A DNA stretch of 64,000 bases from Asterionella formosa (Eukaryota), in contig NKIB01012647.1 of assembly GCA_002256025.1 (NCBI GenBank), forward strand, positions 1-64,000, in the 5' to 3' direction. Positions 11,455 through 58,415 of the stretch are shown piece after piece. How positions within the stretch are numbered: position 1 is the first letter of the stretch; every line of letters begins with the position of its first letter. Made by a program: the position numbers and the translations under genes. The notes under the pieces are model-generated. The model had not been told where the DNA came from, did not search any database, and worked only from the letters and a program-made list of their open reading frames with translations.

Positions 11455-12308
11455 AGAGCTGGCTTTCTTTCAAAAATGTATGAAACAAAGGACGCTGCTC
11501 ATTGCTTTTTCTGTTATTTGCCTTTTTCTATCTCATACGTAAATGACATGATCGGCTATGTACTGGTACGTGGTAACCAGGGAACCAGGTACCACATCAT
11601 ATTGATCATCATCCAGGATCTTCTGACCTCAGCACGAACAAATTTAACTTTGATATAACTGTAAATAATTTAAACCATTTCGCTTGCTGGCTCGAACGAC
11701 GGTGGGTACCAGGTACCACGAGCAACAAGAAGCCCAGTATCAGTGTGCACGTTTTACGCGTACTATTTCAGTTTCGACTCACTCCCAATGATTCCTCCCA
11801 TGATGCTTAGTACCAGACAGGATACTGGTAAGCTGGCTTTCCATTCCAAACTCTCTCAAGTAACTATCTATGCTGTTAAATTATCATTCTATTGAATCCA
11901 AGTCATGTTCTGATCATCAAAATTGTGTTCACCTACTTCAGCTGGTAATCGCATTACCACAAAACTGTTTGACCAGGTACAGTACTCTAAGTTCATCATG
12001 AAATCATTCTGACCTCACATATCAAATCACTTCAAGTTCTCCTCATCTGTCCTATGGTCCTCCTCTTGTTTCAACTTATTTCATGGGTTATTGTGGTGAT
12101 GTCACTCATGAGGAAGATATATCATATTTACTGTTTCAGGTAGATGTGTGCCAAGAGTTCACAGATGATGTTCTTCTCCGCCCATTTTGGTGAAAACAAG
12201 CATGCAAAATGATGTCATTGCATCATATTTTGTACTGAAAAAAGTTTTTTCAGACACTAAATTAATCTTCCAATGGAAATATAATAGCATACCTGTATGT
12301 ATATACTA

Positions 12309-12362: not shown

Positions 12363-12690
12363 CCAGCAGTGGCTTAGTGGTTTAGCACGGTGCCTTTGAT
12401 CTGAGGTTGTGAGGTTCGATTCCCGCAATTTTTTTAAAAGCAATTGTTCTTGCCTGGTGTGCAAGAAATAGTGGGTTGGCCCCCCCCCCCCCCTACAAGC
12501 AGCTTGTGCCGCCTTCCTACTAGGCGGTCGGAGTTTCCCCTAATGCTGCGGCTAAGATGATCACCTTTCGCAAAAGGTGGTTGGGGACTAACCTACGCTA
12601 ACAAAACTAGGGAAGGACAGGTCTTGCCGGCAGGTAGCACAATGAAAGACTTGCCTAGAAATAGTAGGGGAGTATAAATGGGCTTCACAA
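12363..12690 (+). mobile_element. tRNA-derived SINE, family A, copy 1
   Basis: A box TGGCTTAGTGG and B box GGTTCGATTCC. The body (CACCTTTCGCAAAAGGTGGTTGGGGA...ACAGGTCTTG...GCACAATGAA) is shared with 36696-37023 and 60077-60525. Confidence 0.75.
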
Positions 12691-25734: not shown

Positions 25735-26160
25735 GCTACCTAGAGTATACCGGCACCTGGTACCAGGTAGAGTACCGGTACCAGGAACCTGGTACCACTA
25801 CCGGTATGTATGGATTCATTCATGCGCAAATATCGTTCAAATTTATCATACCTTGAGTAGTATTTGCCATGACTCAATCAATACAATATGTACCAGTACC
25901 TGTAGTAGCACCGGCCTAAGTATTTAATGGTACCAGGTACCTTGGTACCAGCAGGTTGTATTCTTGTTTCTTGGTGCTGCTTGAGATGGTCTTGCCAAGT
26001 CATGGCATATGATAGTGGGTACCAGGTACCAGGGGGTACCTGGTACTCCACCTGTTACTGGTACCAGGTCGTAAATACCAGGTATATATAACAGGTACCA
26101 GTACCATTTGAGTATTTGTCAGTAACAGGTACCTGGTCCCCGGTACCAGGGTACCATCAG
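25735..26160. repeat. Dense TA-CC(A/T)GG / TA-CCGG / TA-CCAG micro-repeat array upstream of CTL paralog 3
   Basis: Examples are CCTGGTACCAGGTAGAGTACCGGTACCAGG and GGTACCAGGTACCAGGGGGTACCTGGTAC. Similar tracts lie upstream of most genes in the window. Confidence 0.85.
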
Positions 26161-26343
26161 CTTCGGTAAGAATGTATCTAACGCACATGTATTTCTGCCT
26201 GCTCGACCAGGAAACAAGCAAGCAAGCAAACTTAACTAAATGTGGTCTGGGTCATATTGCCTTGTTGAGATTGCTCCGCCGTTGCTGAGCCCTGACCTAA
26301 TTCATTTATTCTTGTAATCCCTCCTTCTTATTTCAATTTCATC

Positions 26344-27960
26344 ATGACTGTGGTCGTCCAGGGAACGGCGGTCAGCGATCCCTACGGGAACGAAAGTTAT
26401 GGCAATAGTTCCCCTGCAGCAGGAACAGGCCAAGTTGTCAAGGGCGAGAAGCAAGAGTCCAAATGCCGCGATCCAATCTTTGCTCTTCTCTTGTACGGCA
26501 CGGTTGCAGCCATTGCCGCAATTGCATTTACCAAAGGTCTTCCTGCCTATCAGCAATCTGAAACTACTACTACTGCTTCGTACACCGGATACATGTACGC
26601 CGCTCTTATTTGCGGGGGGTTTTCGTTTGTCTTTTCTGGTTTCACCCTCGGGATCATGATGGCGATCCCAGAATTTCTCGTCAAATCATCTCTCATTTTC
26701 TCTGTTATCATTACTGGTGTCTGGGCTGTCTATGCTTTCCTTATTGGCCAGATCTTTTGGGGCATCATAGGCCTGATTTTCTTTGCAATTTCCGTTTGCT
26801 ACGCGCGAGCAGTGTGGTCCCGGATCCCCTTTGCGACGGCCAATCTTGTCACAGCAACTACGGCAGTGAAGTACAATCTTGGAGTTGCTTTAGTTGCATA
26901 CATTTTTGCTGCCTTGGCGCTTGCATGGGCCTGCTTGTGGACGCTTTCCTTGATAGGAGTCTGGGACGTGTCCTACAAGTGCACAACAACCGTTGTCGAT
27001 GGGAATCAAGTTCAAACCTGTTCTTCGAGTCCCAGTTACGGAGTCCTCTTTGCAATGTTTGTGGCTTTCTTCTTTGCCCAGCAGGTCCTTCAAAACACCG
27101 TGCATGTCGTCACTGCCGGAGTGGTGGGTAAGTTGAACTATTGCTGAAATACGTCTCACCAGTTCCATTGCCCCACTTACCATATTGAATTTTACAGGTA
27201 CTTGGTGGTTCTCCCCCGAAGATTCTGGATGCTGCGCTGCATCTGTCACTGGATCTTTTGTTCGCGCCGTGACAACGTCGTTTGGATCCATTTGCTTTGG
27301 GTCATTGATTGTTGCCATTATACAGGCATTGCGACAACTTGCCCATCAAGCCCGTAATAACGGAGATGGTGGCGTTGTAGTCTGTATTGCAGAGTGCATC
27401 CTGGCTTGTTTGCAAAGCATTGCCGAATATTTCAACCAGTGGGCATTTATTTATGGTGCGTCCTTGTTTTGGTCCTTGTTTTGGTAGCATTCAAAGCAAA
27501 TGATTGTTGCTAACACCTCCCAATTTCTATATTCCAATCCTCAGTTGGTCTTTACGGTTACAGCTACTTGGAGGCTGGAAAGAATGTGTTTACACTATTC
27601 CGTAATCGAGGATGGGACGCAGTGATTGCAGACGACTTGGTTGGTAACGTCTTGTTCTTGGTTAGTTTTGTAGTAGGGGGTATTGCCGGCGTAATTGGTC
27701 TCATTCTTTCGAAAACGACTAACTTCTTTGACGAAGCCGAGGACGATACGGGCCTTAGCGCGGGAGGTTTTGCGTTTTTGCTTGGTTTCATTATTGGTTT
27801 GTTAATTTGCAGCGTTTTGATGAGCACTGTTGGTAGCGCTGTGAATGCAGTCATTGTTCTTTTCGCTGAGGCACCTGCTGAGTTCCAGCAAAACTATCCC
27901 GATCTCTCAGGTCAGATGAGGGCTGCTTGGATGGGCGCATTTCCCAATGCTCTTCAGTAG
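26344..27960 (+). CDS. CTL: Choline transporter-like (CTL/SLC44) protein, paralog 3; exons 26344-27127, 27198-27455, 27545-27960 (485 aa)
   Basis: Splicing the GT-AG introns 27128-27197 and 27456-27544 restores the conserved AGVVGTWWF and AFIYVGLYGYSY motifs seen in the intronless paralogs. Confidence 0.9.
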
Positions 27961-31130: not shown

Positions 31131-31809
31131 ATCGCTGTCATTTCGATTTTCAACTACCAGGTACCGGTACTTCATCTCTCAGCAAATCTTGGCAGAATTC
31201 ATGGGAATTTACATGCTTTGTCTTCAATCATCACGCTTGTACACGCAGGACAAAAGCAAAGAGCAGTATGATAATCTGTCTAGACTAGTAGAAATTGCCT
31301 AATAAGAGTAGACAAAAGCTAAATCTTAGTATGGGAGAAAACGAAGCGTTAACTTCGTACTTGCCAGTATCAAAGGCAGTGTTAAGTTCTAGTCGCACGT
31401 TGAGGCTCGAAAACTCGGACTTCTAGGGGTGGGATGGAAAAGGAAGAAATGAGTGTGAGGAACCACAAAGAAACATCAGAACCGCAATGGGATCATTGTG
31501 ACCTGATAAACATAAATTCGTGAGTGCAAGACAAGCAAGTGGGCACTGGATGTGCATAATTTCGACTGGCGACTTTGGCTCAAGTAGCCAACCTGAGCTA
31601 CTGCTCCAGCAATGCTCGATCATGACTCTGGACATTCAGCCAACTTACAAAAGTATGTCCATGCACCTGTAATACAGTTGGTTTAAATTGGTCATCTCGC
31701 AATTGAGCATTCCAGACTTAAGCTTTCTTCATATGAGAAGGCTTAAGTCTGGAATGCTGCCAAGATTTGCCAAGAGATGAAGAAGTCGAAAATCGAAAAT
31801 CACAGCGAT
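31131..31809. mobile_element. MITE-like element with about 55-bp inverted arms
   Basis: ATCGCTGTCATTTTCGATTTTC...CTTCATCTCT..GCAAATCTTGGCAG matches the reverse complement of 31757-31809. The left arm carries a 13-bp insertion. Confidence 0.65.
31706..31758. repeat. Hairpin, 23-bp arms
   Basis: AGCATTCCAGACTTAAGC-T-TTCT/TCATATG/AGAA-G-GCTTAAGTCTGGAATGCT. Confidence 0.9.
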
Positions 31810-33082: not shown

Positions 33083-35524
33083 TCACTGCAGCTCGTGATA
33101 ATGAAGCATCAGCTTGACAACTTCATGCTGAACTTGATCGTCAATATACACACCTTGAGAGCCAAAGACTTCGTCAATAAACTCTAAATATGAATAATGT
33201 GGTGATCGCTTAGGTGCTGGTTCATGTCGCAGTTGTGGCCGAACTTCCGGCGGGAATAGAGGGTCTTTAGCCAGGTCGGGTACGTCCGTCGAGGCAAACA
33301 TGATGTTTCGATCAATATCAGTGAATCGATGGGCTTCAAAATCGAATTTGTCATTTTTGAGAAGGAGTCCCTCGCTAAATGCTCTGGGAAAGAGGACTCC
33401 ACTAGTGTTAAATGGAATCCAACCAAGCTCTAGACGTTCAAGATGACTGTTCCTTCCGATGACTTGATTGGTGGCTGCACCAAGAGCACAAGGTCCTGAA
33501 ACAAGTAAAATTGGGACTAAACGAATCTTCCAAGCCTCTGCAAGCTTCCCTGATGCTCGACACATTTCTCTCTCCATATCAAATAAATCGGCTCGCATTA
33601 AAACAAGATTAATCAATCGTTCCACAGCCTTTGCAATGACTGGATGACCAGGTGCAGCTGCAATTATGCCATTCCAAAGACAGAAGGGCTGATCGTGGGC
33701 AGTGGCAATTCCGTCATCTCGGGCTGTTAAAAAAGAAAGCGTTGGAGTGATAAAAGTATCAAGATTCGTTTCCAGCAAAAGATCTACATCTACATATAAT
33801 CCACCATCTCGCAGCAGCACAAGATATCGAAATAGGTCTGCCTTGAATGCGCCAGGCACCAACGCATCATACGACTCGAGGAAGCGAGCAGGAAAGTTGT
33901 CCTGGATGTATGATCGTACCTCGGTGTCATTATAAAACCTGTATTCCCATCCAGAATTTCTCCAGGAGTTTTGAAATCTGTATAACTGGGGATAGTGAGT
34001 AGGAGTGATATCCTCAAACCAAGTCTGGTGAATGATGCGGGGAATCATTCTTTGACCAACGCGTGGAGGAGGGACATTCACATTGACATCGACTTCCAGG
34101 ATTGTCTTTCCCTTTTGATAGTCGCCCGATTCACAAATGGATCGAGTATAGCACGTATTGCAGAAAATTGAGCAAACTTCATAAGTGCCAAGAAGTGATG
34201 CTTTGACACATCTATCGCAGAGCCAACCAGGCTCACACCCGACGGAACGAAGTAGGGATTGGTGCGAAGACTTTTGAGGTTGATCAAGATTCCCATTCGC
34301 CGAAATCGAAACTGAGATCGATTGTGGAGACGATACAGTTGAGAACGTCGTTGAGACTCGTTCGAGATACAGGACTTCCGAACCAGGGTCCTCTAGTATA
34401 GAAATTTCAGAAAGTGGTGCAAGGTTTGTATCTTGACAATTGTTAGCTGTGTTCGCAAACGTTAGTAACAACTTCTTTCCTTTATCTGCATCCAAGCCCT
34501 CGATCGGGTGACCAAGGAAGAAGACCAGCGTTGATTCCACATCTGCCAGCGATTCCCTTTTCTCCAGACTTTCAATCACGCATTGAAGAAGTGGATGCTG
34601 AGGAGGGGCGGCGATCAAATTCAGATATCCCTTTTCATCGTACTGAACAAATCCCATTTTGAAGCATTTCCCTTGTGGGGAACCCATGAGTTTCTGCATT
34701 TTCTCAATGCCATCGACATTGCGGGATGGATTAGTTGGACCGAATACGACTCCTCCATAGCGGTGAACAGCGCAAATCGACCACAACAAGACCTGTAGAT
34801 CATGGTGTCTCAAAGCGTCAAAGAGTGTAAGAAGATGTGGATAATTTTGTTTGATTAGCCCACGTAAATCGCTCAGGTCAAAAGCGACAAGATCATAGGA
34901 ATCATTCTGAACGAAAGGGCGAAAAGAGCTTCCAACGTTGGCTTGTAGAATCCTCTTTGGGAAAGGTGATGGACAATCCGTGTCCCAATTCATGGCCGAC
35001 GCCTCGACGAGTGCCATGACTTTCTTTCGACGAAACCTTCTAATAAGTACTTCGATGGACCAGCTCATTGCATCAAGCGCTACCGACCGATGTAGCCTGG
35101 CAAGAGGCAGCCCTAGCTCCTCTAGCAAAGCTTTCCGCTTAGCAAACACTTGCTTCCAGACATGCCGGCGAAACTTATGATCTACGTACGCACCAAGTAC
35201 ACCACCATTCATTGACTTGCGTCCGAAATAGTGTTTCTTGCGATCTGCAAGTAACGCAATGAATAGTGTGGCCAAGGTAAGTAGCAGGGACACTTTCAGC
35301 CAGCGTTTGTTGGACACTATCTTTTTGATTTGTCGGTACCGCATCTTGCCCTTTCTGATGTAGCTCCCACACTGACTTGAGACCATAACAGCCTTGTCGT
35401 GCAGAATTCCAATATTCAAACCAATTTGCCTGGCAGTCGGGCCATTTATCATTTCAACAGCCTTCTCGTTAATGATTCCAATGCGCTTGGCAGTCGCGCC
35501 TTTTATGATTTCAAATGGGTTCAT
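33083..35524 (-). CDS. GT32 (DxD; OCH1/SUR1-like) glycosyltransferase with an additional degenerate N-terminal GT32-like domain
   Basis: IPRIIHQTW, GAFKADLFRYLVLLRDGGLYVDVD and IIAAAPGHP motifs with an N-terminal transmembrane anchor. First in-frame ATG is at 35524. Confidence 0.85.
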   Translation of the reverse strand: MNPFEIIKGATAKRIGIINEKAVEMINGPTARQIGLNIGILHDKAVMVSSQCGSYIRKGKMRYRQIKKIVSNKRWLKVSLLLTLATLFIALLADRKKHYFGRKSMNGGVLGAYVDHKFRRHVWKQVFAKRKALLEELGLPLARLHRSVALDAMSWSIEVLIRRFRRKKVMALVEASAMNWDTDCPSPFPKRILQANVGSSFRPFVQNDSYDLVAFDLSDLRGLIKQNYPHLLTLFDALRHHDLQVLLWSICAVHRYGGVVFGPTNPSRNVDGIEKMQKLMGSPQGKCFKMGFVQYDEKGYLNLIAAPPQHPLLQCVIESLEKRESLADVESTLVFFLGHPIEGLDADKGKKLLLTFANTANNCQDTNLAPLSEISILEDPGSEVLYLERVSTTFSTVSSPQSISVSISANGNLDQPQKSSHQSLLRSVGCEPGWLCDRCVKASLLGTYEVCSIFCNTCYTRSICESGDYQKGKTILEVDVNVNVPPPRVGQRMIPRIIHQTWFEDITPTHYPQLYRFQNSWRNSGWEYRFYNDTEVRSYIQDNFPARFLESYDALVPGAFKADLFRYLVLLRDGGLYVDVDLLLETNLDTFITPTLSFLTARDDGIATAHDQPFCLWNGIIAAAPGHPVIAKAVERLINLVLMRADLFDMEREMCRASGKLAEAWKIRLVPILLVSGPCALGAATNQVIGRNSHLERLELGWIPFNTSGVLFPRAFSEGLLLKNDKFDFEAHRFTDIDRNIMFASTDVPDLAKDPLFPPEVRPQLRHEPAPKRSPHYSYLEFIDEVFGSQGVYIDDQVQHEVVKLMLHYHELQ

Positions 35525-36453
35525 TATGAAACAACGAGAGAAAGAAGCAACCACAGTGTAATAATAACGAGATGCTGAGCCGAAGGAGTGCAGCCATCAG
35601 AATAAAAGCCAAACCGCAAGCAATTTATATCCTCAGCAGCTTATAAATTTATCATGTATGATACAGTTAGTTCCGTTTAAACTGCGGACCAAGGCTACTA
35701 CCGGTACATTTATACATATATCCCGGCTATATATATACCGGTAGTTTCTTGTCGTCGTTCCGGGAGGGACTGGTTTGAAATATACATAGAATAGACATAC
35801 CCGTATAGCTGTACATCTATTCATACACAGGCATCAACATAAGGGTTAATGTGAAATACAGTACATATTTTTACTGATCAAATGTGAACCGTATGTAGTA
35901 GCGGTATGTGTACGTGGTAAAATATCATACGTGGCTCCTGTTGTTCACTACAAGTGGCATATTGCTTCTTGGTGCTTCGTACGACAACTTTTACTCGTGC
36001 CTCCTCCTGGGTCGCTTGGTCCTGGCGAAACAAATCCTACGTATGTATGTACACACCACTGGAACAGTATTTGGTTTAAAATGCATACCACGTACAGCTT
36101 TGCTTTTGAGTACCGATATGTATACCGGTATTTGTATATACCTATATCCACAAACATGAGGATTTCAAGTATACCGGTAATCCAGTGCTTCTTTCTCTTG
36201 GACAACAGCAATGTATACAGCAACACATTCGAGTCATGTTGCTGCTAATATCTCGTCATCATGCATGTTTGCCCAACACTTAGCAACGAGTACCTGATGA
36301 AAGAATAAGTCCACAATTGCCACGAGCATTTCTTTTTATGCATACACAGCTAGTTCCTCAATACAGGTTCTTTGTTGATGATGCGCACTGATGCATGCTG
36401 AGGAATTGTTCTGTTCAACCAAACATGATGACTACACATATGAAACAATACAC

Positions 36454-36695: not shown

Positions 36696-37023
36696 ATGAC
36701 ATTCTGTTTTATAGGCCATTTGTACTTCCCTAGTATTTCTCGGCAAGTATTCATTGTGCTACCTGCTGCTGACAAGACCTGTGCTTCCCTAGATTTGTTA
36801 GTGTAGGTGAATCCCCAACCACCTTTTGCGAAAGGTGGTCATTGTAGCCGAAGCTGCAGGGGGGAGGCAATCCACTATTTCTTCCACCCTTGGTAAGGCT
36901 ATGTGGGATGGGAAGGAGTGTGGAAGCCAAACCCAACAATTGCTTCTCAAAAATTGCAAGAATCAAACCACAAAACTTCCTCAGATCAAAGGTTATTTGC
37001 TTTACCAGTCAGCCATGCCCTTG
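36696..37023 (-). mobile_element. tRNA-derived SINE, family A, copy 2
   Basis: Minus-strand head GGGCATGGCTGACTGGTAAAGC...CCTTTGATCTGAGG...GGTTTGATTC, with the body shared with 12363 and 60077. Flanking direct repeat ATACA(CA/TT)CTATCAA at 36682-36695 and 37024-37037. Confidence 0.75.
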
Positions 37024-38835: not shown

Positions 38836-40722
38836 GGCAATTCCCGCTCCAGATTTATATCGCCTTGCCATTCGGGTAATTCTAAGTAATTTTTGGGCGT
38901 TATGTAATTCTAATTTAGGGGCAATATAGGGCATATCGAATTTTTCGGCATTAAAATTGCCGATTTTTAGCTTGACAACCAGGATAATGGTAATATGCAT
39001 GGAGATGGTACAACAAGCGTAAAACACAAGAGAATGATTGTAACAACATGCAAAATCAATGAAAATTGAACATGATGTTTGGAGCAACCAAAGTACTATG
39101 AAATGCAATGTAATAAGTTGCATCAAATAAGAAATAGAAAAAATTGTTTTGGGATAGAAATGAAGTAAAAAATAGGAGTTTCAATGGAGACGTATGCATT
39201 GTGAATCATTGTAGTACTTACACAGGCAACATTGACTTTCCATGACCACACAATCGAAGACCGAAAGAAGAACAAAAAAAGCTGAACCCAATATAGACTT
39301 GCATCGTTATGTAGCGTAAATGGTCTGGTTGCTGCAACCATGTGCATCGCTGTGGCCCATAGTAGTAGCCTGACACCAGTAGCAGTATTTCCGCCACAGT
39401 CATCATTCCTCCGCCCACCAAACAAGCAATCCTGATCATTCCATTCTGAGCAAGCGTGATCGCCACGCTGCTCCAGCACTATTGACTCTCTCTAGCTGAG
39501 TATTTATGTAGCTTGTGATACGAACTCGTAGTAGAAATGTAGCAAAGTGCGTTAGTACAAGAAAAGCATTGCTTGGCGGCAATATTGACATCATGGTAAA
39601 AGACTATACACATCAACAAATACGATCAACAACAATATGTCGTCAAAGAGTAGTCATCGATAAATACATTGGTTAGTATGTAGATAGATACAATCGAAAC
39701 AAAACGACAGTGCCGTGCGGAACGACAAACGACGATGGAAGCGATCAAAACGGGCCATGGAAGCAATCAAATCGGAACTTCGACAATTTTGTATCTACGA
39801 TCACATTCAGTGTTTCACTGTTGTACTCACCGATCCGCTCTAACAAGCGTAACACACAGCAGACTATGGGCTCATAAGAAAGTCGAAAGTTCCTGTGCAT
39901 TGCAAGCCCGAATAGAGCAACGGCAGGCAGGATAGAGTGAGAATTATAATTGTGAGGACGAAATCGGGCATTCGGTACGAAAAATCAATCAATATGTGAA
40001 CAATACAATTTACCATTCTGGCTGGTCTCGTAAAGATACCGAGTCTACAGAGATAACATTATAATGTGCTCAAAGTAAGCGTTAAGTTTTAGCTTAAACC
40101 ATGCATGGTTGTTTTGAGTACCACGTCCGTATGTAGGCTAGATGACTATCAGTAGAATATCCGTTAAGCATCATCACATGCATGACCGGAGCAAAACTTG
40201 CCACCAACATCAGATGTATCGATATCATTGTTCATCCAACGAAATATGGACGATGCGACTACATGAATCCCTCGAGAAGACAAGCAATCCAACAACCAAC
40301 CGCATCCGTTAGACAACGAATCGCTACTGGCGTCATCACTGAACTGATTTCGCTTCAAACCGGTAATGATGGACGACAATCGGCATGGTGAAAGGTGAAT
40401 TGCCGGAGTCCACTTTTCATCTGTAGAGTATATAAAATGGTTTCCTTAAGTAGACCCCTTGCCAATTTCGACAATCCCAGGGCTGGACAACCGAGGGGCA
40501 ATTGGCGTCTGTTATCTTGCCAAAATGCGAAGATAGGAAATATACAAAATATATTTTAATGATGGGCAATATCGGACCCATTGCAAATTTCGATGTGAAG
40601 ATAGGAAATATACGAAATATATTTTATATGATGGGCTATAGTGAGCTAAAATTGACATTTACACTTGATGAGTGGGCAGTAGGTAAGCGAATGGCGCGAC
40701 GATAGCTAGTTTGTGGATTGCC
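38836..40722. mobile_element. Non-autonomous TIR element, 'GGCAAT' family (1.9 kb)
   Basis: Left end GGCAATTCCCGCTCCAG...ATCGCCTTGCCATT and right end AATGGCGCGACGATAGCTAG...GGATTGCC. Both ends are shared with 6176-6580. A further partial left arm follows at about 40817-41015. Confidence 0.75.
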
Positions 40723-43083
40723 TCAGCAATACCCTTCTCGGTGGCTACATGCCTTCTCGTACACATGTGTAGTCGGCCGGGATGGCACTCGTAGGGTGAC
40801 CTTCTCGCAGCGCCGGATCGCCTTGCCATTTGGTTAATTCTAAGTAATTTTTGGGCGTTATGTAGCTCTTTTTTCGGGGCAATATGAGGCACAATAATTT
40901 TTCGGCAATACAATTACAGAGTTTAGCATGACAGCCAGAATAATGGCAACAAATATAGAAATACATATTTTGAGTCTGTGACAGAAAAACAAGCATCAAA
41001 CACAAGAGGATGATTGTTGTCTTTTCCAGTTTTGCTTTTGTAGTTGAGAGTGTGATGACTTTTGTATTTCGTATTCAGTGCTGCTAGTAGAACAAGAGTT
41101 GAATGGTAGGGTTTAGCTCCTTACTACACCAGCAGTTAATTTGTTCAGCCTCCCTTTGTTCTCAAGACTCGCCAGTTTATATAAGATTTTTGTTTGCTTA
41201 GCTCATTTGTAATAAAGACAATATGCAATATCTGAATTCAATACCTATATAGTAGTCCCGAAATTCTACCAAGGTAGTATTTTCTCGTAGGCCTTGGTAG
41301 TCTTCTACTGAGGACAGAAAGTACCTCTTAGGTATTGGCAAATCTTTACGTGGTCAGTATGATGAGGTATGTAACAGCTCAAAATTCTACCGTGTAGAAT
41401 TTGTTATCTCGTTTTGGTAGTACATTCTACCAATCATAATAACTAGGTTAGGGTTAACATTGATATTTTCAAGAATATATAATGCCAGCAAGGAAGAGGA
41501 GAGCAATGCCTGTATATGTTCTATCTACCGATAATTTCGGTAGTCCATACCGTAATTACTTCATTCTTAAAGTTCCTTTAACCCGTCTCAACTGTAATAA
41601 TCACTGTTAATGATACTCGCTGCTATTCTATACAAGGATGCATGGACGCGAGATTGACACATGAGGATGATGGACTTTCGAATGGTAAGGCAAAAGATGG
41701 CAACACAGTATGCCCTGCTCGCTCACACCTGATCCCATCGAACACAACACAGCAACAATCCTGCGGATTCAACAGCACATGGTACATCCGTCACGTGGAA
41801 GCATCGCCCTCCAAGCACTGCAAAATGCCGTCACGAACCGAAGGTCGGTCGCTTCCGTTGCATTTCAGGCTATGTACCAAACCGTTCACACCGCGGTCCA
41901 GCTGCCGCAAAACATGGCTGATTCTGGGATTCAAGACAAGTTGAGGACGGATCTGTTGCTGGGAGTGGAAGTCAATCAAACAGAATGTGGGACCGAAAGG
42001 ATAGAGCCTGAACTCAAAGTGGTTGTTGCGTGAATTCAACAGGCTGTCACACTTTCTTGAGCATCGTCTTGAGCCTTCATATACACCAAAACTATTTGAA
42101 CTGTTTTACTCAGTCTGAAATTGTGACGACTTTTGGAAGAATTTGGTGCTCGTGGGTGGTTCACTTGGAGCAGTTTTATTGGTCTTTGCTGCACTTAACA
42201 ATGCTTTTTTACTTCACTTCAAGATTGGCGATTGGAATCTTCTAGCTATGCTCCCAGATCCAAAGATTCACCCCTGATACACTCACAACATCATTGCCAA
42301 GGTTGAAAACTGCCTTGCTTTCGCAGTTTGTAGTTCATATCCATTTCTCTCCTGATATTTGGAATGGGTGTGGTTGGGGAAAAGTGTACATAACCATGTA
42401 CCATGCAAAAAACTATTTGCTTGTCCATGAAGGTTTAGTGGTGATGGCGTTCCTCCAGTTGTGGTGGTTCCAATGGACATGACAGCACCATCTACAGTTG
42501 GAAGTAGTGTGAATGTTGAGGGGCAAATTCAACAATTAACAAGCAGGCAACGATTTGCAATTAGAGTTGGACCTCATTATGGTTCTGGCCTACAAGCAAC
42601 TGTATGTAATCCCAGCAAGGCTCCAACAAAGTCTCAAGGACTTTGTGAAGTTGGAATTGCAGAGAGAAAGTCAGTCAGGCTATGAACAAGGCTTGAGAGG
42701 GGGAGGAATAAATGATTTTATTATTGGGTAAGTTACAGAGCAGATTACCGGTAGTTTTGGTTAAAGTGCTCATACAATGATCAACAGAATATATGAGGCA
42801 TATTGTCAAGAACTTTCAGTGACCCACATTTTCAACAAAATGCTTATTGATTGATGCACTGGTGGAAATCCACAACTACGTGTTTAGTTTTTTACTACCA
42901 CATTAACCAGCATGCACATTATTACATTCTCATTGTTTCCATTTAATGTTATTCATTTAATATGATTTGATTTACCGATGTGTTAATATGTATTGTAGGA
43001 GTACCATAGTGGGCGCGCTCTGATAATAAAAAATTATTATATCATATGTATTATAACACAAATCGTTATACCCATAACACCAA

Positions 43084-43170
43084 AATTTGTGTTTGTGTTG
43101 ACCAAATTTGGTAAACCTGGCAAGCACCTCCTACCAGGTTTACCAAATTTGGTCAACACAAACACAAATT
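43084..43170. repeat. Perfect 37-bp-arm hairpin inside the left end of the PHIS element
   Basis: AATTTGTGTTTGTGTTGACCAAATTTGGTAAACCTGG, a 13-nt loop, then CCAGGTTTACCAAATTTGGTCAACACAAACACAAATT. Confidence 0.95.
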
Positions 43171-43379
43171 CTTTACAGTTATAAATAACAGTGCATTATA
43201 TAAAAAGATGTTTAGACATGAATGACTATATAGAATTTCCCGGAAAATTTCAAGACTTGCTTGCTCATACTCAAAATGGCTTGCTCTTGCCAAAATAGGT
43301 ATGCATATACATATGCATATAGTTACATATCAATCAACCTCCTCAATAAATCGATCGTCATCGCTTTTAGATTTCGGTC

Positions 43380-44586
43380 ATGTCTTCATCTTCTTCTGGT
43401 CAAAGGAGAGCAGCCAGGGAGGGCTTCCCTTCCTCTCCAAGGCTGCTTGAACGTCGCCGTCACCAGCAACAAGAACAACAACAGACTCGACCAGAAGAAG
43501 AGGAGGAGGAGGACGACGCCGAGAATGAAGATGACACTGGTGCTGATGAGTTTGCCAGTGACGATGAGGACAGTAGGATAGGTGTCCCAGGTGTTTCTCA
43601 GATTGGTGTTTCTTGGGTTACTCAGTCCTCATCAAGGAACAACAACGAGTTTACAAGTGCTCCTACTAGTTCAGTTTCAAGAACAGCAACTGCCAGGCGA
43701 GCACCAACGTTTCCAAGAGCTCGCCGAAGCATGCAGAGTCGGGGTCAACAGTTCAGGATCAATGAGATTCTCTCATTGCTGGAAGCCATTTCTACTCACC
43801 TGCCAATTGGGTCCCATGAATGGGAAGTTGTTGCATCACAGCACAACGAGAATTTCCCAGACAAAGAACGGACAGGACCTTCACTTCACCGAAAGTTTAC
43901 ACAGCTGCACAAAGTTAAGAAACCAACTGGGGACCCAACATGCCCTGCTGAGGTGAGATATGCCAAACAAATTTTTCGAAGAATCGAGCAACGAGCAGAT
44001 GCAAGTGCTGAGATTGAATCCACTGATCTTGGAATAGAGAAAGAGCCCAATGAGCCCAATATTGATGAGCCAAATGTTGATGATGATTTTATAGCGATTT
44101 CTGAGGAGAGTGAAGACAATGGTGGAGCAACATCTGCCGCTTATGCTAATTTTTCTGGTTCAAGATTTCCTCGACCTATGGTGCGTGTCCCCTCGATTTA
44201 GAGATAAGGCAGTGTCAAAAAATACTGGGCCTGTTGAGAAAGTGCTTTCTCTTCTTTCGACACAGTTGCTTCACAAGGCTACTCGAACTGATACTGGTAA
44301 CCTGCAGCAGCAACAGAACATGATGAACATGATGATGATGTCAATCATGGCATCATTGTTGAATCATGGGGTATCTCAAACAACCACCTCCACTGACAGT
44401 GCCAATCCCACTCAGGCAATTATGAATTCAATTATTGCTTCAAACATGATTTCAATGCAGCAAACAATGCAAAGCCAAAATCTAACCTCAACAGCAGGTG
44501 CCAATGCACAACAAACTTTGTCTGCCTCAACTCAATGTCAAACACCAAAAAACAACAGTGGTAGCAGTAGTAGTGATGATGAATAA
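43380..44586 (+). pseudogene. Myb/SANT-like accessory ORF of the PHIS element, frameshifted near 44185
   Basis: FRINEILSLLEAISTHLPIGSHEWEVVASQHNENFPDKERTGPSLHRKFTQLHKVKKPTGDPTCP resembles a trihelix/Myb-like domain. The C-terminal part continues in another frame to 44586. Confidence 0.7.
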
Positions 44587-44660
44587 CCTTAAATTAATTC
44601 ATTCTAATATAATGTGAAAGAAGCGGTGCTAAATAATCATGAAGGAATAATTTCTTTGAA

Positions 44661-45834
44661 TTACATGGCATATCTATTTGCATTCCTATGCAAATAGGGC
44701 ATATACACTGAAGCAATTTGGTTCTGACCAACTTTGCTAGCACGAAAGTTGTAGAGCAATACAATCATTTGGAGAATTAATTTTCTCTCACCTTTTTCTT
44801 CATAACGAAATTTGTCTTTGATTCTCGGAAATGATCCCTGAAGGCATCGCATTCCCCATTCCGACAGCTGTCGGATGGAGGTGGCTTGGCGATTCATACC
44901 AAATCTTTGTCAAGGATTACCATTTGCATCAACATTGTTTTGATGCGATTTCAACATTGCATTTGATTTTTTAGATGCAAATGCTGAATCCACAACTACT
45001 TTCTTGCCTGTATCCCTGTAAACTGTTTCAATCTGATCATAGATTGATGACCAAATTGCCATGGTGGAGTCATGTAGAACACCAGGTGCATTGAAATATG
45101 AGCAGCAAATTTTTCCATCAGGCGAAAAAAGAAACAAGTTTGTCACATAGTGTTCATGGGTCCATCCATTGTAGAAGTTGTTCTGCTGCGTTACATTTCC
45201 AGCCTGTTGCAGGGTCAGTTTCAGACAATCCATTGCTCCCCAACAATTTGTTATAAGCGGGTATTTCTGATTGATCATGGTTGCAAACAAGGTGGCTTCG
45301 TCTGCAGTAGGCAGTCTCACTTTACAATCATTCGCCTTGAAAACCTCAACCAAACACTCAAAGAACCATGCTGAGTGAATCCGAAAATAATCTGAAGAAT
45401 CATTTAGGAACCACGAGTCCTAGTCCATGCTAACCCAAGCGCTAGACAACTGATGGAACAGAGGTATCTTTGCCGACCTTTCTTTGTTGTTGAATTTCTA
45501 ACAATGAAATCCGTATTTTTCCTACAGGGAGTAAAGGAATAAAAACAAGGTTTGAACAGCTGGTGTAGGAGCTCGAAAGAAGCATGGTCAAACCCACACA
45601 AGGTAATCAGAGCATCATCATGCCTGCTGTTGAACATAGTCCAGAATGGACTCGATAATGGATGCTGTAGTGCGTGGTGACGTATTTTGCCACTTCTTCT
45701 TCTGACCTCATCAACAGTCAAACTTTCCCTGAACGATGGCGTCCTATTAATTGGTGGATAGCACATTGCTAACAGTAGCAATGTGATCATAATGTCATCA
45801 TCATCACCATCAGGAGATGAGATGAAAGTCGACA
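44661..45834 (-). pseudogene. DDE transposase of the PHIS element (2 stops, 1 frameshift)
   Basis: CWGAMDCLK, FYNGWTHEHYVTNLFLFSPDG, APGVLHDS, VVVDSAF and RQLSEWGMRCLQGSFPRIK motifs. Stops at 45404 and 44910, frameshift near 45320. Confidence 0.85.
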
Positions 45835-46601
45835 TGGTCAGTGACCAAGATGATGAATATATAGAACTCATGCATAAAATGAACAAGAGGCGGCATACTA
45901 GCATACAAGAGGATGCATCGATATGAAAATTTAACTGTTGAAAACTAAAGTTAAAAATATATATAATGTCAGAGAAGTAATCTAAAATATCTCTATTATC
46001 AGAGCGCAAGGACGATATTATGTAGCAGATCACCAGAATAATTTGTGTTATAATACACACATGATATAATAATTTTTTATTATCAGAGCGCGCCCAGTAT
46101 GATAGCCGACACAAAATTAATGATCACTGTACATACCGGTATACCTGTACATATATTGAATTGCACGACGAAGTACCTGGTACGTGGTACCTGTAATGAG
46201 TAAAGGTACCTGGTACCAGGTACAGCAACTGGTACTGATGGTCATGCTGATGAGCGATATGCAAACATTCATGATCAGGTACTGGCTTTGTACACGGTGC
46301 TAGCAAATTACTAGTGCACTAGCTTCCACTACGGGTAGCATTCTCTGTCGAATAAAAAGTGAATACCTATATTGTAAGAAGTTTACCAGTACCTGGTGAG
46401 CAATCCTGCACATCGATACAGATGTATATAGGGTTAGGGTTATATCGAATATATCGGAGCTCAATAATGAGAGAACTCGACTAACACCTATTCTATACTT
46501 TGATGTCATTTCAGGAAATGAGTTGTACATAAGGATTAATAAATAAGCTCATATATTCAACAAATACTGCTACTTCTAGTTAGATACTTCACCTGGTGGT
46601 A

Positions 46602-47433
46602 CTCCCTCTGGGCGAAAATAATTGCGTCAATTTGCAGCAACTGCAGTGCCCGAGCAGCTTATTTTTAGGACAGATTACATGGGAAACGTACCATTTTTCT
46701 TTGTTATGATTGGTTTACTTGGAAAAAACCTTTTTAATAGAATAGATATATAGACATGAATATATAAATTCGCACTCACTAACTAAATTATTAGCATCTA
46801 AATTAATTAATCAAAACCAATTTAACATTCATATATTTTGATAGTATATATGTACATATCGCCAAATGCTGTTTTACTTCGGCTGGCCACTCGAATATTT
46901 GCGGAAGATGGAATACAACATGTCACTATCCTGATTAGAACATGAATGAAGTGACTGTCATTCAGTATATAATCTATGGATGGTATATTTACATTTACCA
47001 TACCGTTGGATTTTTAACACTTCCAATACTCAAAATGAGCATACATTCATTTCTTCCTTCCCATCATCACCAGCACTTTCGCGGTTGCGCATTCCATAAT
47101 CAAAGGCAACTTACCGGTGTTCTACTGTTATAACCTCCTTCATAAGTATGTTGAGAATGGATGGTTCGAAGAAAAACGGGTCCTCACGGCATTTTTATTT
47201 TGCTCAAGATGGCCATAAGTGAAAATCGAAAAAGCCCAAACATATTTTTTGAAACCAACATACTACTAGTTGCCAATTTTAAATTAACAACCTATATACC
47301 GGTATTATACATGGATCTGTAGCTGTGTGTATGGCACACATTAGGGCAAATAAGCCGGAGAAAATTGTATGAGTTAAGATGGCCCCAGAGAAATTTCAAG
47401 AATATTCGTGCAATTGCTTTCGCCCAGAGGGAG
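46602..47433. mobile_element. Stowaway-like Tc1/mariner MITE, copy 2
   Basis: TA|CTCCCTCTGGGCGAAAATAATTGC...GCAATTGCTTTCGCCCAGAGGGAG|TA: CTCCCTC termini with a TA duplication. Confidence 0.88.
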
Positions 47434-48059
47434 TACCAGAGTCGTGTCTGGAGTAATTGATTAAATTGGAATGCACATAATATATCAGTACAAATACTAC
47501 AAAAAGCAGAAAGTGCAGTTTATGATGATAGTCCCCCAAATGAATTGTGAGCTTTCTGCCTTGAAACTTTGCATGATGGTTCTTCATCGGCTGATCGAGT
47601 CTTCCTTGACCTTCCCTTGCGTGTTTGCCTTTTGTTCGCTAGCCATCAGACCACATCTTTATTTTTCTGCTAGACAGATTTTGCACTGATGGTTGCTAAT
47701 TCGGTCTCAACCTGAATCATGATTTCAGTGCACACTTCGTGCGCATCCCTATTTCCTCGACTATAATAAGAAAAAACCCTTTATATGCACCTGAACATAT
47801 TTGTAATTTATCTATTTTATTTGAATAGTATTATCATGGTGATGCAGCCAAATGAGGATGAATTATGGTGAAAACTATTGGGAAGGTGCATCGCCAGCTA
47901 TTTATTGGGATGCCATTTGGATTCTGCCCGTCAAATTTTTCCTACATAATGTAGTTAAATATAACGCCATTTCCGACTGTGTGTTTGTCCTATTCGAAAT
48001 GATATGCACATCAGACTCTAGTTGTCAATCAAGCTTAGATTAAGCAATTGCAGGTTCTT

Positions 48060-49442
48060 CTAAAAGTTCATAGGCTTCGACCAAACCCATTTATTCGCGG
48101 CCCACTTGATATCTTCCTTGCTTTCCACAGGACAGGATCCGTGCAATGATAGCTCATCCAAAGATCCATCCGCCTTCATGCTGTAAAATACTATGACTTT
48201 TCCTCGTTGTGGCTTGACCTTGAGGCCTTTCGTGCAGTCCTTAAAGTTGTGTGGCATAGGGGCACCATTAAAGCAGGGAAAAATGGTTTCTCCTCCTTCG
48301 CTAACGTCACTTAGGTACCAAAATACAGTGGCCAACCGATTGCGAGTGCCGTTAGCAATGGTTGCTTGAGTAACAGGGTCCTTTTGGTACAACTCAGGAT
48401 TAAAGTAGTCGTGGTGCGAATCATAGTGTTCAGTGAGACCATATCTTAACACTTGAACATGCTCTTGATGCGTTTGAGGAATTCGCACCAAGGAAGCAGT
48501 CCTATCATCAATACCCGCCAACACGTCACTATTGTGCGACGGCAAAAAGGTGGACTGAGAAGTTCTAAAATCTGATGCAGGCCGGCCGATATCACCGTCC
48601 GTAAGGGATACACCCGAATACTTCATTGACGGTGCAGCCTTGTCTTGAATATAATCACATTCTTCAAAGTCTAAGAATCCATGGATAGAAAGTACCAGAG
48701 GGTGGAGTGATAGGGTTTCGATTGTGGCATTCCTCGATGGCCCTCGCCTTGAAACGCCAGGAATGTACGACAGGTCAAGGACTCGTTGGAAGCCAATACG
48801 TACTCCCGGCCACACAAATGCTCCTCCTTCCATGAGAAGGACGATTCCAGAAAACATTGTCATATCTACGTTTTCATCTGCTTCAGTAGCCAGCAATTCC
48901 CCAGAGCTTGAATACACTGCCCAGGGCTGATGTTGAATTGGTCTGTGCTGAAGCATCAGAGCTTCGTCTAAAGCCTCCTTAAGAACGACCCAAGAAATAA
49001 TTCCTGTAAGATTCTTGTTGGCTGGAGTTTCTTTCCTTGCGCCCACAAATACATCAAAGGTATTGTCGTCCTTGAAACAAATAGTATGCATGCCAGCAAC
49101 TTCCTGTTCGTGCAAGAAATCGTCGATATTGGAGCAATCGAAAATTGCTCGTGCTTCTGCCACAATTGCGTCAGGTCCAGAATTCGATCCTTTATCTATT
49201 GGATGCTCTTGTAGGTTGCGTTGAGAAGAGGTAGTGGTCGTCGAGGAGAAAAGATGCGGTCGAGCAGCAAGGACGAAGGACACGAGGGCGACCAAAGAAC
49301 ATCCAATTATAGCTGGGAACGACAATTGCAAAGGGCTTTTGACCTTGGCACATATCTTGCTCCTTTCCTCATTACTGTCTCCCTTTTTTGTCCCAGGAGA
49401 TGGGACGAGGGAAGATTTCTTGACTTGTTTCGTCTTAACCAT
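48060..49442 (-). CDS. P4H: Prolyl 4-hydroxylase alpha-like (2OG-Fe(II) dioxygenase), type II membrane protein
   Basis: QVLRYGLTEHYDSHHDYF, RLATVFWYLSDVSEGGETIFP and SLHGSCPV...KWAANKW motifs with an N-terminal transmembrane segment. ATG at 49442. Confidence 0.92.
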   Translation of the reverse strand: MVKTKQVKKSSLVPSPGTKKGDSNEERSKICAKVKSPLQLSFPAIIGCSLVALVSFVLAARPHLFSSTTTTSSQRNLQEHPIDKGSNSGPDAIVAEARAIFDCSNIDDFLHEQEVAGMHTICFKDDNTFDVFVGARKETPANKNLTGIISWVVLKEALDEALMLQHRPIQHQPWAVYSSSGELLATEADENVDMTMFSGIVLLMEGGAFVWPGVRIGFQRVLDLSYIPGVSRRGPSRNATIETLSLHPLVLSIHGFLDFEECDYIQDKAAPSMKYSGVSLTDGDIGRPASDFRTSQSTFLPSHNSDVLAGIDDRTASLVRIPQTHQEHVQVLRYGLTEHYDSHHDYFNPELYQKDPVTQATIANGTRNRLATVFWYLSDVSEGGETIFPCFNGAPMPHNFKDCTKGLKVKPQRGKVIVFYSMKADGSLDELSLHGSCPVESKEDIKWAANKWVWSKPMNF

Positions 49443-50916
49443 AATAATGGTCAGATGATCACACAATGACTACCGGTAAAACATATATTGGTCGTACTTA
49501 TTTTGAATCAATTATTTTGAGTTTTGTTGCTGTGAATCCTTGGATCGCGGCAAGCAACCAACAATAGCTAATAAGATACAGCTACCGGTACATGAGTTTG
49601 CTCGCTTTGTAGCGAGTAATATACCCGGCTAACCAGGGTTTGCTTACGGTACCTGGTAGTCTACCAGGTACGGGAAACGTTGTACTTCCTGGCTTCGTGG
49701 AAAATGCTTTATGTGTATCGTGCACAGACCTCGCTTTTTTTCAAATATCTAGCAAAATTCTAGTCGCGCCTTCTTTTGCATTGCTGCTAAATCCGTAATG
49801 ACACAACATATAATAATGTGATCGATGATCTAGCAGTTTATGTTCTTAACATATGCTTATTGTTTGGTTCAGATGCTTTTGATCACTGAATCCAATTCGA
49901 TCATAGAAGTGCGAAAATGTAGTTTTGTATACATATACAGAACAGAATCACATTACATTCAGTCCATAATTTCACATGATCTTTTCTTGCTAGTGGAAGC
50001 TTCTCCTGGTGGTACCTGCTTTGGGCGAGATATTGTAATGAACTTCGCCTTTTCATCAACTACCTGGAAGTTTGACCAGACTCCAATCAACTCTCTAATC
50101 CCAACAAATTACATCGGAATACCATTATAGAACCTATGTAGCATGGAATTATGTTGAAGGAAGAATAAATATAACGGTAATACACATTGCTTGGTACAAA
50201 ATATTTTTGATTCTCATTGTCACACCATGCTCAATGAATTGTCATCGTTTTAGGTTTCAAAAAGCAGCCATTATCCATTTGACTGGTGGATGATGGCAAA
50301 TATGAATCACACTGAGAGAGATCAAACGAAAAGACCTCAAAAGAATGTGAAAGCCCGGAGATGAGCACCAAAACCCGCAAAAGAAAAGGAAAACCCGGAT
50401 ACACGACATTTTCCTGCGTGTTCTCCGGGTTTTCGCGGTCTTTTTCGAACGTCGCGTTCTTTTGCCTTTTTTGGGACAACGTGATGCGAGGTCGATTTTA
50501 GATAAAACACAGTTATTGTACTTGACTTTTCGTATTACGGAGTTCTTTCAACTCCCAGTTTAGAGTTATGAGCTATAAAATCCGGTATGTGCTAGCTGAT
50601 ATGGCAGCACTAGGTATAGCCGTACCTGGTACACCAGGTACTGGTGTTGCAAGCTTGTCTTGAGTCCTGGTACCGGGTGTGTGTGTAGAAAAAAATGGAT
50701 TGGAGGGCCATACATAAATAGCAACACATCAAAATAACGCAACACTATTACAGGTAGTCCCATTTCGACAGCCTGTTTCAGATTCCCAATAGTTCTCTAC
50801 TTATCCGTCGTTGTCTCTGCGACTGGAACATCGATAACTTGAGAGCAAGCTCGGATCGATCGCAAGTAAGCACATCAGAATCATCAGTAGCTTGAATATA
50901 AATTGAATTCAGGCCC

Positions 50917-53900: not shown

Positions 53901-54855
53901 TGGAATTACTGCTTCTTTATCCCAGTTTTTGACACAGGATGCACATCCTTTCGGGATTGGTGGATGGTGCTCAACCTATTTATCTGTTTGTTCGTTCGTT
54001 GCATTTATATATACTTTGATTCTTCGTTCCAGACCGACCAAAAGTGCAGCGACTCGAGGGATCGGTAACCTCAGTTGTATTCTCTCTTGGTTTTGCACAA
54101 TTGTTGTAATTTTCGGAAAATATGGAGTAGCTGGACTCGATGCTGGTTTTGATGTAACTAAGGTGGCCGGCCTGTCTGCATCAGTGTTTGGTACACTTTT
54201 GGCATCCTTGCTTTTGTTAGCGCTTGAGGGCGAGTCCGGTTCAAGCGGAGGCCGCAGCAGAGTTCGACGGATATCTGACAATGCAAGTCAATACAAACCA
54301 TCCTTTGGACTGTCGTTGACACAGCTGAAGCGGTCTAATGCATTGGCACCTGTGATTGCTGCCGTAGTTTCTGTGTTTGTCATTGCTACGGCGTACGCCA
54401 TTTTCATCAGAGGGTGCAGTAACTTCTTCGACAGCGATACCAATCATCAAAGCATGTTTCATGCTGTGTTTGGGAAGGTGGACAGATCAAATGCAGATTC
54501 CGAATTAGCTTACATGGCAGAGAGAAGCGCTCTCCACAGTCAAGCCGTTGTAACATCCGCGAAGCTTGCCAGAAGTAGCTTTTGGATGGCTGCCAATCCG
54601 ATGGGCCCACTACTTTACCTGGGAGGAATGTTGGCAACCATCCCCGGTCTATATTTGTTAGTGACATATCTTTGGTCTGGGATAGGGATACAGACTGCGC
54701 AGGTGACCCTCGCAGCACCCTTGAACATGATTCCACTTGTCTTTTGCCGTGGCATCCCGACTCTTACTGCAGCAGCGACAATCGGTTTTGTTGGAGGCCT
54801 ACTGCAATTAACAATGCTTCGAAAAAAAGATCAACAGGCACGAATGAGAATATAG
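50917..54855 (+). CDS. NEF1: NO EXINE FORMATION 1 (NEF1)-like multipass membrane protein; exons 50917-51456 and 51553-54855 (about 1280 aa)
   Basis: The GT-AG intron 51457-51552 joins the two ORFs in frame. From recall of the Arabidopsis NEF1 N-terminus, it shares a Pro/Ser-rich MMPP start, LVP.A.LL, Y.LD..N, W..LQF.W......E..L..C and DL.L....P.L, with many transmembrane segments. Confidence 0.7.
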
Positions 54856-55139
54856 AAATCCGTCTTTCGGTGTTAACTTTTATATCCAATCGGTTTCTTC
54901 ACCTCGTTTCCCACAGCAAGCTAAATAATTCCCACATAGCCATGTAACTAACACTCAACGTTTTTCGTCTCATCCGCAATTGGTTGCTTTATTCATCAAT
55001 TGTTAACAACCCCTTTTCAGCAGCATCGGTTTTACCAGGTACAGACCTTGTTGATGAGTATTAGAAGGACTAATAATGCGACCTTAAATAACAATTAACA
55101 CGTTTGAAGGAATAGATGAAATATTTGTTCCCGACGAGC

Positions 55140-58040: not shown

Positions 58041-58415
58041 ATAAACAATTAAGTTGGACGATATAGCAAGCTTTGAGTAGTTTCAGTTTTTGGATGATTG
58101 GTGTTTATTTTACCCAGTATTGCTCAATTGTACAATCAGACGAGTAGCAGGGCGTCCTGTACGCAATCCATGTCATCTTGAGGGAAGAGACAAGAAGTTA
58201 ATCTTCTAAATGGCTAAAATGCTTGCTGGGTCATGGTCAAAAGTCGGCAACAAAATATTTAGAATTACGCTTTGGTCTAGCAGCTTGGTTCAAGGAAAAG
58301 AACAACTCTCATTGCGACTAGCTAAAGTTCAAGTATGCTTTGGAGATGTGGTGCTGGATTTGTGGTATGGTGTGTTGAGGCAAGATGGTAGTATTGGCAA
58401 GGGGAAAGGACGAGC

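Follow-up and report, generated by a model that had tools for sequence, protein, structure and literature searches.

What are the short, almost uniform words that punctuate the non-coding DNA of an Asterionella formosa contig, and what process wrote them? The stretch analysed here, referred to as the window, comprises 64,000 nucleotides (contig NKIB01012647.1 of assembly GCA_002256025.1, positions 1 to 64,000, forward strand). Its most conspicuous words are the units TA-CCGG-TA and TA-CCWGG-TA, where W is A or T. With moderate confidence, we interpret these units as the stereotyped repair scars of a TA-targeting cut-and-paste transposon, or of its MITEs (miniature inverted-repeat transposable elements), that was inserted and then excised. 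In every unit a pair of TAs encloses a short palindromic core, CC-GG or CC-W-GG, and some units are indels between repeat copies. The units lie in non-coding DNA and are mostly found in the 600 bp upstream of genes, a region in which other DNA transposons are located as well.

The initial annotation had described TA-CCGG-TA, TA-CCAG-TA and TA-CCAGG-TA as discrete units at TA sites, and such words are counted far above the expectations of an order-2 Markov model of the 64 kb. TA-CCGG-TA is observed 22 times (0.56 expected), TA-CCAGG-TA 14 times (0.29 expected) and TA-CCTGG-TA 9 times (0.30 expected), which brings TA-CCWGG-TA with both centres summed to 23 (0.59 expected). TA-CCAG-TA (9 observed, 1.27 expected) and TA-CTGG-TA (10 observed, 1.23 expected) together reach 19 against 2.5, and TA-CAGG/CCTG-TA reaches 10 against 2.3. 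Among 8-mers with at least eight occurrences, TACCGGTA ranks second in excess, behind a poly-C run. The spectrum of spacers is narrow, with CCGG and CCWGG in front, CCAG/CTGG next and CCTG/CAGG after them. Not enriched between TAs in the window are the spacers CCA (9 vs 6.3 expected), TGG (3 vs 6.3), CCATGG (0 vs 0.13), CC (7 vs 12), GG (16 vs 13.8), CCG (1 vs 2.5) and CGG (4 vs 2.3). CCAG and CTGG are the two C-to-T products at the CpG of CCGG, and among one-base variants of TACCGGTA they far outnumber the rest (9 and 10, every other transition giving 0 to 4). Part of this class may therefore be decayed CCGG.

The search pattern itself demands two TAs, and all 64 counted units are bounded in this way. 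They form 58 arrays, of which 53 are single, four double and one triple. No fixed arrangement is apparent, the units being free to vary in number, order and spacing, and the flanks of the arrays are otherwise unrelated, so the units are discrete short words and not parts of one longer repeat.

Direct evidence that such words are inserted comes from paired repeat copies within the window. The initial annotation had named five pairs in which it saw an insertion at TA, and we checked them by self-comparison of the window and pairwise alignment. The five sites are as follows.

31155 to 31169: a double unit, TA-CCAGG-TA-CCGG-TA, that lies within an arm of an inverted repeat
62964 to 62971: single unit TA-CCAG-TA, a clean 6-base gap (CCAGTA) in the sister copy at about 22858
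39094 to 39098: TA-C-TA, a clean 3-base (CTA) insertion relative to the sister copy at 6438
47297 to 47304: single TA-CCGG-TA, ambiguous against 13679
59972 to 59979: single TA-CCAG-TA, aligned to 13138 with mismatches and no gap, an insertion not confirmed

Three of the five pairs survive as clean indels (31155, 62964 and 39094), so the direct evidence for insertion at TA amounts to three events; the cases at 47297 and 59972 are ambiguous. The first site reads TACCAGGTACCGGTA, then CTTC. The opposite arm of the inverted repeat (about 31780) is without these 13 bases, and its empty site reads TT, not TA. At 62964 the base preceding the TA differs between the two copies (A vs G). The unit-free copy thus shows a single TA in two of the three clean cases and TT in the third. 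The copies at 47297 and 13679 are about 75% identical and meet in a poorly aligned stretch, where the indel is not placeable. In the three clean cases the units are what they had been said to be, namely discrete, TA-bounded and without counterpart in the sister copy. Scarred and empty sites are both seen between repeat copies, with no filled state among them. A tabulation of indels across loci was uninformative, most matches being unit arrays aligned to one another.

The words are also dispersed well beyond the window. Sequencing runs from 17 studies contain window DNA, and most of them carry a freshwater- or algal-metagenome label. Contigs of four runs, in all of which the organism was confirmed, were compared with positions 44001 to 64000 (indel detail covers 12 of 78 entries, all outside 59281-59944). 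In run X3, the word depth over unique parts of the window is about 175. Within this one organism, stacked units recur in dozens of contexts that have nothing else in common. At the two edges of one stacked word, 46205 and 46223, 52 and 45 contigs diverge from the window in X3, and 36 and 34 in run X9; at the stacked word 59291/59311, 22 and 32 contigs diverge in X9. These contigs share the word alone, with flank agreement of 0.35-0.41. One X3 contig follows the window over 47197-50322 (five arrays, 3126 bases) with 14 substitutions and 2 gap letters. Two gap letters leave no place for a 6- or 7-base unit change, and the units are hence shared with the X3 strain. Another X3 contig, over 59281-59944 (six arrays), has one substitution and is 21 letters shorter than the window by gap total. 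A 6-letter difference in 61107-61617 has no bearing on the units, since the stretch contains (TA)n and a 6-base tandem repeat but no counted unit.

Metagenome contigs scanned for a stacked pair of CCWGG units gave at least 126 stretches, and a scan of viral contigs for the stacked pattern gave none. Six overlapping loci were dropped, and those with a G+C of 0.38-0.50 and at least five units were kept, leaving 56 loci with 126,479 bases. TA-CCWGG-TA occurs there 480 times against 7.0 expected, a figure inflated by the choice of loci. TA-CCGG-TA occurs 51 times (5.3 expected) and TA-CCAG/CTGG-TA 145 times (28 expected). Two loci hold repeats 83-87% identical to window repeats.

To what extent are the cores particular? 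We screened all TA-bounded words of the form P+rc(P) or P+N+rc(P), where rc is the reverse complement and P has two to four bases, with no internal TA. In the window, CC(W)GG alone passed the filter. In the loci it was accompanied by CTCGAG (16 vs 0.42) and CTC[C/G]GAG (10 vs 0.15), and ACWGT was marginal (4 vs 0.58). The second core leads back to an element resident in the window.

46600 to 47435: TA-flanked element with Stowaway/mariner-like ends; its inverted ends, CTCCCTCTGGGCGAAA, match at 16 of 18 positions

The length of this element is 832 bp. Having TA on either side and ends beginning CTCCCTC, it belongs with the Stowaway- or mariner-like elements, as a putative non-autonomous member. 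In excerpts of PMC4561436, the Stowaway primers carry TA and then CTCCCTCCGTCCC. The halves of CTC(S)GAG (S, C or G) match the CTCC tip of the resident element, and CTCGAG and CTC-S-GAG are the leftovers expected of CTCC...GGAG tips; CC-GG and CC-W-GG share that build. The match points to transposon ends as the source of the cores. The element is inserted in the TA of a TGG-TA-CCA context, so a TA element can land in GG-TA-CC, as stacking of scars needs.

A single repair scheme could generate the spectrum. The donor tips would read CCWG...CWGG, and excision would leave each TA-bearing flank with a 3' overhang of about four bases. If the overhangs anneal over the inner three bases, C.G, W.W and G.C would pair, and random resolution of the central W.W mismatch would give CCAGG or CCTGG. 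Annealing over all four bases would create two central mismatches, resolving to CCGG (favoured if repair is GC-biased) or to CCAG/CTGG; for CCTG-tipped copies, the same annealing would resolve to CCTG, CAGG or CCGG. CpG deamination of CCGG could supply further CCAG/CTGG, and repeated events in the same open, promoter-proximal DNA would stack scars into GGTACC-rich arrays. We infer that such overhangs would account for the full set of enriched spacers without producing those that lack enrichment, a result that free trimming of CCA/TGG ends does not give. The initial annotation had already read the units as excision footprints of a TA element. That part gains support from the TA-bounded indels, whereas freely trimmed CCA...TGG termini do not fit the spectrum, given the lack of enrichment of CCA, TGG, CCG, CGG, CC, GG and CCATGG.

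Could the arrays instead be micro- or minisatellites, in which a 6-7-base GGTACC(W) unit grew by slippage from chance seeds? Runs of up to six units do occur in the related loci, where (TAC)n and (TAG)n runs lie beside units, and the 21-letter deficit of the X3 contig over 59281-59944, with its single substitution, could be read in the same way, although only as a gap total. Satellites of this kind are head-to-tail copies of one unit that change mainly in copy number. Here 53 of the 58 window arrays are single, the largest holds three units, and units of differing length are mixed within arrays. The central base is also informative. Among 160 adjacent CCWGG pairs in the 56 loci, the centres are AA in 51, TT in 42, AT in 40 and TA in 27; 93 pairs thus have the same W, a slight excess, and 67 differ. 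Near-random W in neighbouring units shows that the arrays are not plain slippage, and it is what mismatch resolution or independent events predict. Nor does slippage account for single units that appear at a lone TA. The spacer and TA recur within 40 bp of 25 of the 53 single units, but 18 have neither a copy of the spacer nor GGTACC in that range, and units are thus not always copied from adjacent DNA. Slippage may add copies; it cannot be the main origin, and we rate satellite growth as a very unlikely explanation of the arrays.

The second regularity to be explained is placement. Open reading frames (ORFs) of at least 200 amino acids cover 32% of the window and hold three of the 64 units, all three near ORF 5' ends; in the loci, such ORFs cover 33% and hold 18 of 676 units. 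In the window, the zones between 600 bp upstream and 30 bp inside of the 5' ends of 13 host ORFs contain 37 of the 58 arrays. Of the remainder, one lies within 600 bp past a 3' end, one inside a gene and 19 elsewhere. Intergenic spaces on the 3' side are short, totalling about 3.8 kb non-coding by our own coordinate tally, and have about 0.3 units/kb vs about 5/kb upstream. The loci lean in the same direction more weakly, with 7.4 units/kb in 33 5' flanks vs 2.6 in 24 3' flanks. Spacing of the window arrays is strongly clustered, 32 of 57 gaps being shorter than 200 bp. Coding repeats were considered for the upstream arrays and are ruled out by stop codons in all frames. This strong 5' bias was overlooked in the initial annotation. 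The clusters are located as follows.

25761 to 26103: 10 unit arrays and degenerate GGTACC words, upstream of the choline-transporter-like ORF starting at 26296
59066 to 59308: unit-array cluster including the triple unit 59287-59308, bracketing a foldback MITE
46134 to 46222: unit arrays just outside the right end of a Harbinger element
49471 to 49670: group of four unit arrays, immediately upstream of the minus-strand 2OG-Fe(II) oxygenase ORF 48060-49469
56981 to 57024: pair of unit arrays between the diverging 5' ends of ORFs 55140-56666 (minus strand) and 57303-58040 (plus strand)
35699 to 36179: four units, all single TA-CCGG-TA, upstream of the minus-strand glycosyltransferase-like ORF 33083-35596
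7949 to 8132: two units upstream of the choline-transporter-like ORF 8141-9763 (plus strand)
11561 to 11830: three units upstream of the choline-transporter-like ORF 9865-11469 (minus strand)

Placement of this kind suggests that the units might be selected cis-regulatory or chromatin elements of diatom promoters, with sites on GGTACC, ACCGGT or CCWGG. Whatever the mutational supply, the words would be kept and multiplied because they aid transcription start or keep DNA open. The upstream position of 37 arrays, against one in 3' flanks and one inside genes, fits this idea, as do the flank densities of the loci, the five arrays of 47197-50322 shared with the X3 strain and the recurrence of the same words across many diatom-like contigs. 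Selection, however, would account for the maintenance of the units and not for their origin, and it leaves aside the constancy of the core across flanks and the second core that matches a resident TA element. The fresh unit indels at 62964 and 39094 lie in MITE copies far from ORF starts, 19 of the 58 arrays are away from ORF ends, and no fixed arrangement of units is seen. At a strain divergence of 0.3-0.45%, unchanged units are also expected under neutrality. Such a diatom motif was not found in the literature, which was searched mainly at the level of titles and abstracts. We consider a purely regulatory explanation improbable.

Breaks at TA (or GTAC) in open promoter DNA, repaired without any transposon, would be drawn to the same places, and the 5' bias fits breaks at active promoters. 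Repair in that case would be a hairpin- or palindrome-generating process or an error-prone, templated micro-insertion. Every enriched core is palindromic or near-palindromic, and the arrays form long perfect palindromes with strong folding (z = -5.6 for 59170-59315). The base adjoining the outer TAs is G at a frequency of 0.47 vs 0.25 for TAs generally in the window, and 0.56 vs 0.38 in the loci; with this excess of G/C, the sites often read GTA...TAC. Palindromes made from the flanks would nevertheless vary with the flank, and the core here is CC(W)GG regardless. The 18 single units without a local template, and the agreement of the CTC(S)GAG class with the tip of the resident TA-flanked element, likewise argue against it, and we give transposon-independent repair little credence.

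If the units are excision scars, their cores should derive from the tips of some donor. The one candidate for the CC(W)GG tips, a lead and not proven, is a foldback MITE present twice in the window.

59179 to 59272: foldback MITE with inverted ends of about 25 bases starting CCAG (CCWGCAAGTTGCGGTMATTTTGC); TA at left
57040 to 57128: a second copy of this foldback MITE, diverged and inverted

The copy at 59179-59272, whose ends are also given as CCWGCAAGTTGC..., folds strongly, and further copies occur in loci L011, L057 and L117. The left tip reads CCAG or CCTG and the right tip CTGG, CAGG or CCAG, which are the four-base spacers enriched between TAs. In three of four copies the left end abuts TA. 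Among the joints listed into the MITE region, most start at 59177, the TA, in contigs of other genomic copies. The interval 57009-59308 was also considered as one 2.3-kb transposon and rejected; two convergent paralogous genes lie inside it, and its arms are the two foldback MITE copies.

A PIF/Harbinger element near unit arrays was also considered as a donor.

43011 to 46095, minus strand: PIF/Harbinger element, flanked on each side by AGT in the context T-AGT-A; its inverted ends are GGGCGCGCTCTGATAAT

It is near-complete, having a transposase (DDE_Tnp_4 at 44913-45419, E 1.3e-12), a second ORF (DUF6818, 43371-44201), inverted ends and a 3-bp duplication, as PIF/Harbinger elements do. Contig depth indicates roughly 120-240 genomic copies. 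As a donor of the units it was rejected, with ends of GGGC...GCCC and an AGT duplication; it adjoins unit arrays. The usual PIF/Harbinger target is TWA. Related copies in loci L019 and L048 abut ACT or AGT, and this family seems to target TA[C/G]TA instead. The L019/L048 pair was also rejected as evidence for unit indels, being a Harbinger-type coding region with ordinary indels. According to excerpts of PMC4561436, PIF/Harbinger excision is reportedly precise, which also counted against this element as a donor.

Several points weigh against reading the units as scars of a TA element. A regulatory word or a promoter-linked break process would explain the 5' bias just as well, and the loci were chosen for two adjacent CCWGG units, so that their CCWGG counts are inflated by design. 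G is over-represented beside the outer TAs at the frequencies given above, and to our knowledge G beside TA is not a target preference of Tc1/mariner elements. The right end of the foldback MITE abuts TA in one of five cases with no consistent duplication, and its two copies in the window face 64 units. No Tc1/mariner/pogo transposase was found in 117 ORFs of the window or in 54 ORFs of the loci (52 of the 63 with at least 130 amino acids, plus two; nine short or overlapping ORFs were left out), which together are a small part of the genome; the sole DDE matches among the ORFs searched are PIF/Harbinger (DDE_Tnp_4). The initial annotation had suggested a search for TA|CCA...TGG|TA elements. 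Across the window and the 126 kb of loci, searches for inverted ends of the type TA|CC...GG|TA matched only unit arrays, and no such element with long inverted ends appeared besides arrays that match each other. Finally, excision sites in rice are described in excerpts of PMC4423477 as mostly messy, 8 of 94 being perfect and the rest carrying deletions or filler, and uniformity such as that of the units here is not a given.

The stretches 7622-7640 and 62964-62982 both read TACCAGTACTCCCT followed by similar bases, that is, TA-CCAG-TA and directly a CTCCCT start. This start, which resembles a Stowaway-type end, could be chance or a shared fragment. The bin 46002-46668 has the highest contig depth of 30 bins, about 500x the single-copy level in X3. 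Within it, 46400-46650 shows no clear inverted ends, a copy in locus L049 is 83% identical, and contig-rich variant sites occur at 46304-46509. Long poly-G and poly-C tracts at 60255-60373 and 12480-12493 lie inside a repeat family (12545-12684, 36713-36854 and 60078-60516) and adjoin nine consecutive N (60289-60297), which probably mark an assembly gap.

Among the products of the long ORFs of the window are four proteins resembling choline transporters, a 2OG-Fe(II) oxygenase, a glycosyltransferase, an ADP-ribosylglycohydrolase and others of host type. Two PIF/Harbinger transposase fragments accompany them. The choline-transporter-like (PNS1-type) paralogs, at 8141-9763, 9865-11469, 26296-27957 and 55140-56666, all have unit clusters just upstream. 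The third is split into three ORF pieces by frameshifts, stops or introns. For one transporter the best named relatives are from diatoms, at 37-44% identity, and metagenome proteins reach 60-64%; on this ground we regard the window as diatom-like. No relatives of a 1113-residue window ORF were found in the metagenome contigs. Two small convergent genes, 57303-58040 (plus strand) and about 58416-58996 (minus strand), are paralogous, with signal-peptide-like N-termini and a shared C-x-DSECSVD-type motif, and neither has a Pfam match. The pair is an old inverted duplication, and each gene has a foldback MITE copy and unit arrays upstream.

ORFs of the loci are ordinary host genes, several of them of kinds that we take to be expanded in diatoms. 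In loci L070, L026 and L084 the intergenic DNA consists almost entirely of words punctuated by TA, with (TAC)n, (TAG)n, TAGCTA and TAGACTA alongside CC(W)GG units. Across the related loci, TA-C/G-TA is observed 1393 times (653 expected), TAGCTA 156 times (45 expected) and TAGACTA/TAGTCTA 124 times (22 expected).

Excision footprints as such are already on record, chiefly as rare by-products met with in assays or when two genomes are compared. The scar-like words described here appear about once per kb, are concentrated upstream of genes and recur in many diatom-like contigs. No description of dense, promoter-biased arrays of TA-bounded palindromic scars in diatom-like genomes was found in a literature covered mostly through abstracts and largely outside subscription journals. 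If the units are scars, they form a readable record of past transposon traffic, and transposons create palindromes, CpG sites and array-like sequence in the promoters of ecologically important algae. If they are not, a sequence-specific micro-insertion process or an unrecognised promoter word has to be explained. A bolder extension, which we put forward as a rather doubtful possibility, is that diatom promoter DNA is partly built by such traffic. Uniform scars would grow into GGTACC-rich arrays, and these would become preferred landing sites of other DNA transposons, with perhaps a regulatory or nucleosome-excluding role as well. In this self-reinforcing process, fresh non-coding sequence would be added upstream of genes throughout an algal lineage.

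Comparison with known systems places the units closest to footprints of TA-targeting elements. The footprint of Sleeping Beauty and Tc1 is TA-C(A/T)G-TA, with a geometry in which the inner three bases pair, and that of Minos is TA, four end bases and TA, produced by heteroduplex repair. As in those footprints, TA stands on both sides here, and the inner bases, in cores of four and five bases, would be transposon tips. As in Sleeping Beauty footprints, the central base is A or T at random, which mismatched annealed overhangs would give. The cores differ in being CCGG and CCWGG, and the donor is a candidate only. Moreover, the Sleeping Beauty and Minos footprints are assay products, whereas the units are a genome-wide, promoter-biased population stacked in arrays. 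The mimp MITEs, which are of the TA-targeting Tc1/mariner type, sit in promoters of Fusarium oxysporum effector genes. The concentration upstream of genes is common to both, but intact MITEs mark the Fusarium promoters and mostly scar-sized words remain here.

Transposons of the hAT group make an 8-bp target duplication. Footprints of the hAT elements Ac/Ds are palindromic additions built from flanking DNA, as given in excerpts of PMC4561436. The units resemble these as palindromic additions at a site, but have a constant core whatever the flank and a duplication of TA. In the same excerpts (PMC4561436), Stowaway and mariner-like elements make a 2-bp duplication, and their footprints hold the duplication and a short end sequence. 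Like Stowaway MITEs and the plant mariner-like Osmar elements, the window has a TA-flanked element with CTCCCTC ends, and the loci are rich in TA-CTC(S)GAG-TA. Unlike in those systems, the abundant units are CC(W)GG and not CTC...GAG, and no mariner-like transposase is present in the ORFs searched. The rice catalogue, in the excerpts of PMC4423477, likewise presents excision as a source of small insertions and deletions throughout a genome; in contrast to the rice sites, the products here are a handful of uniform words.

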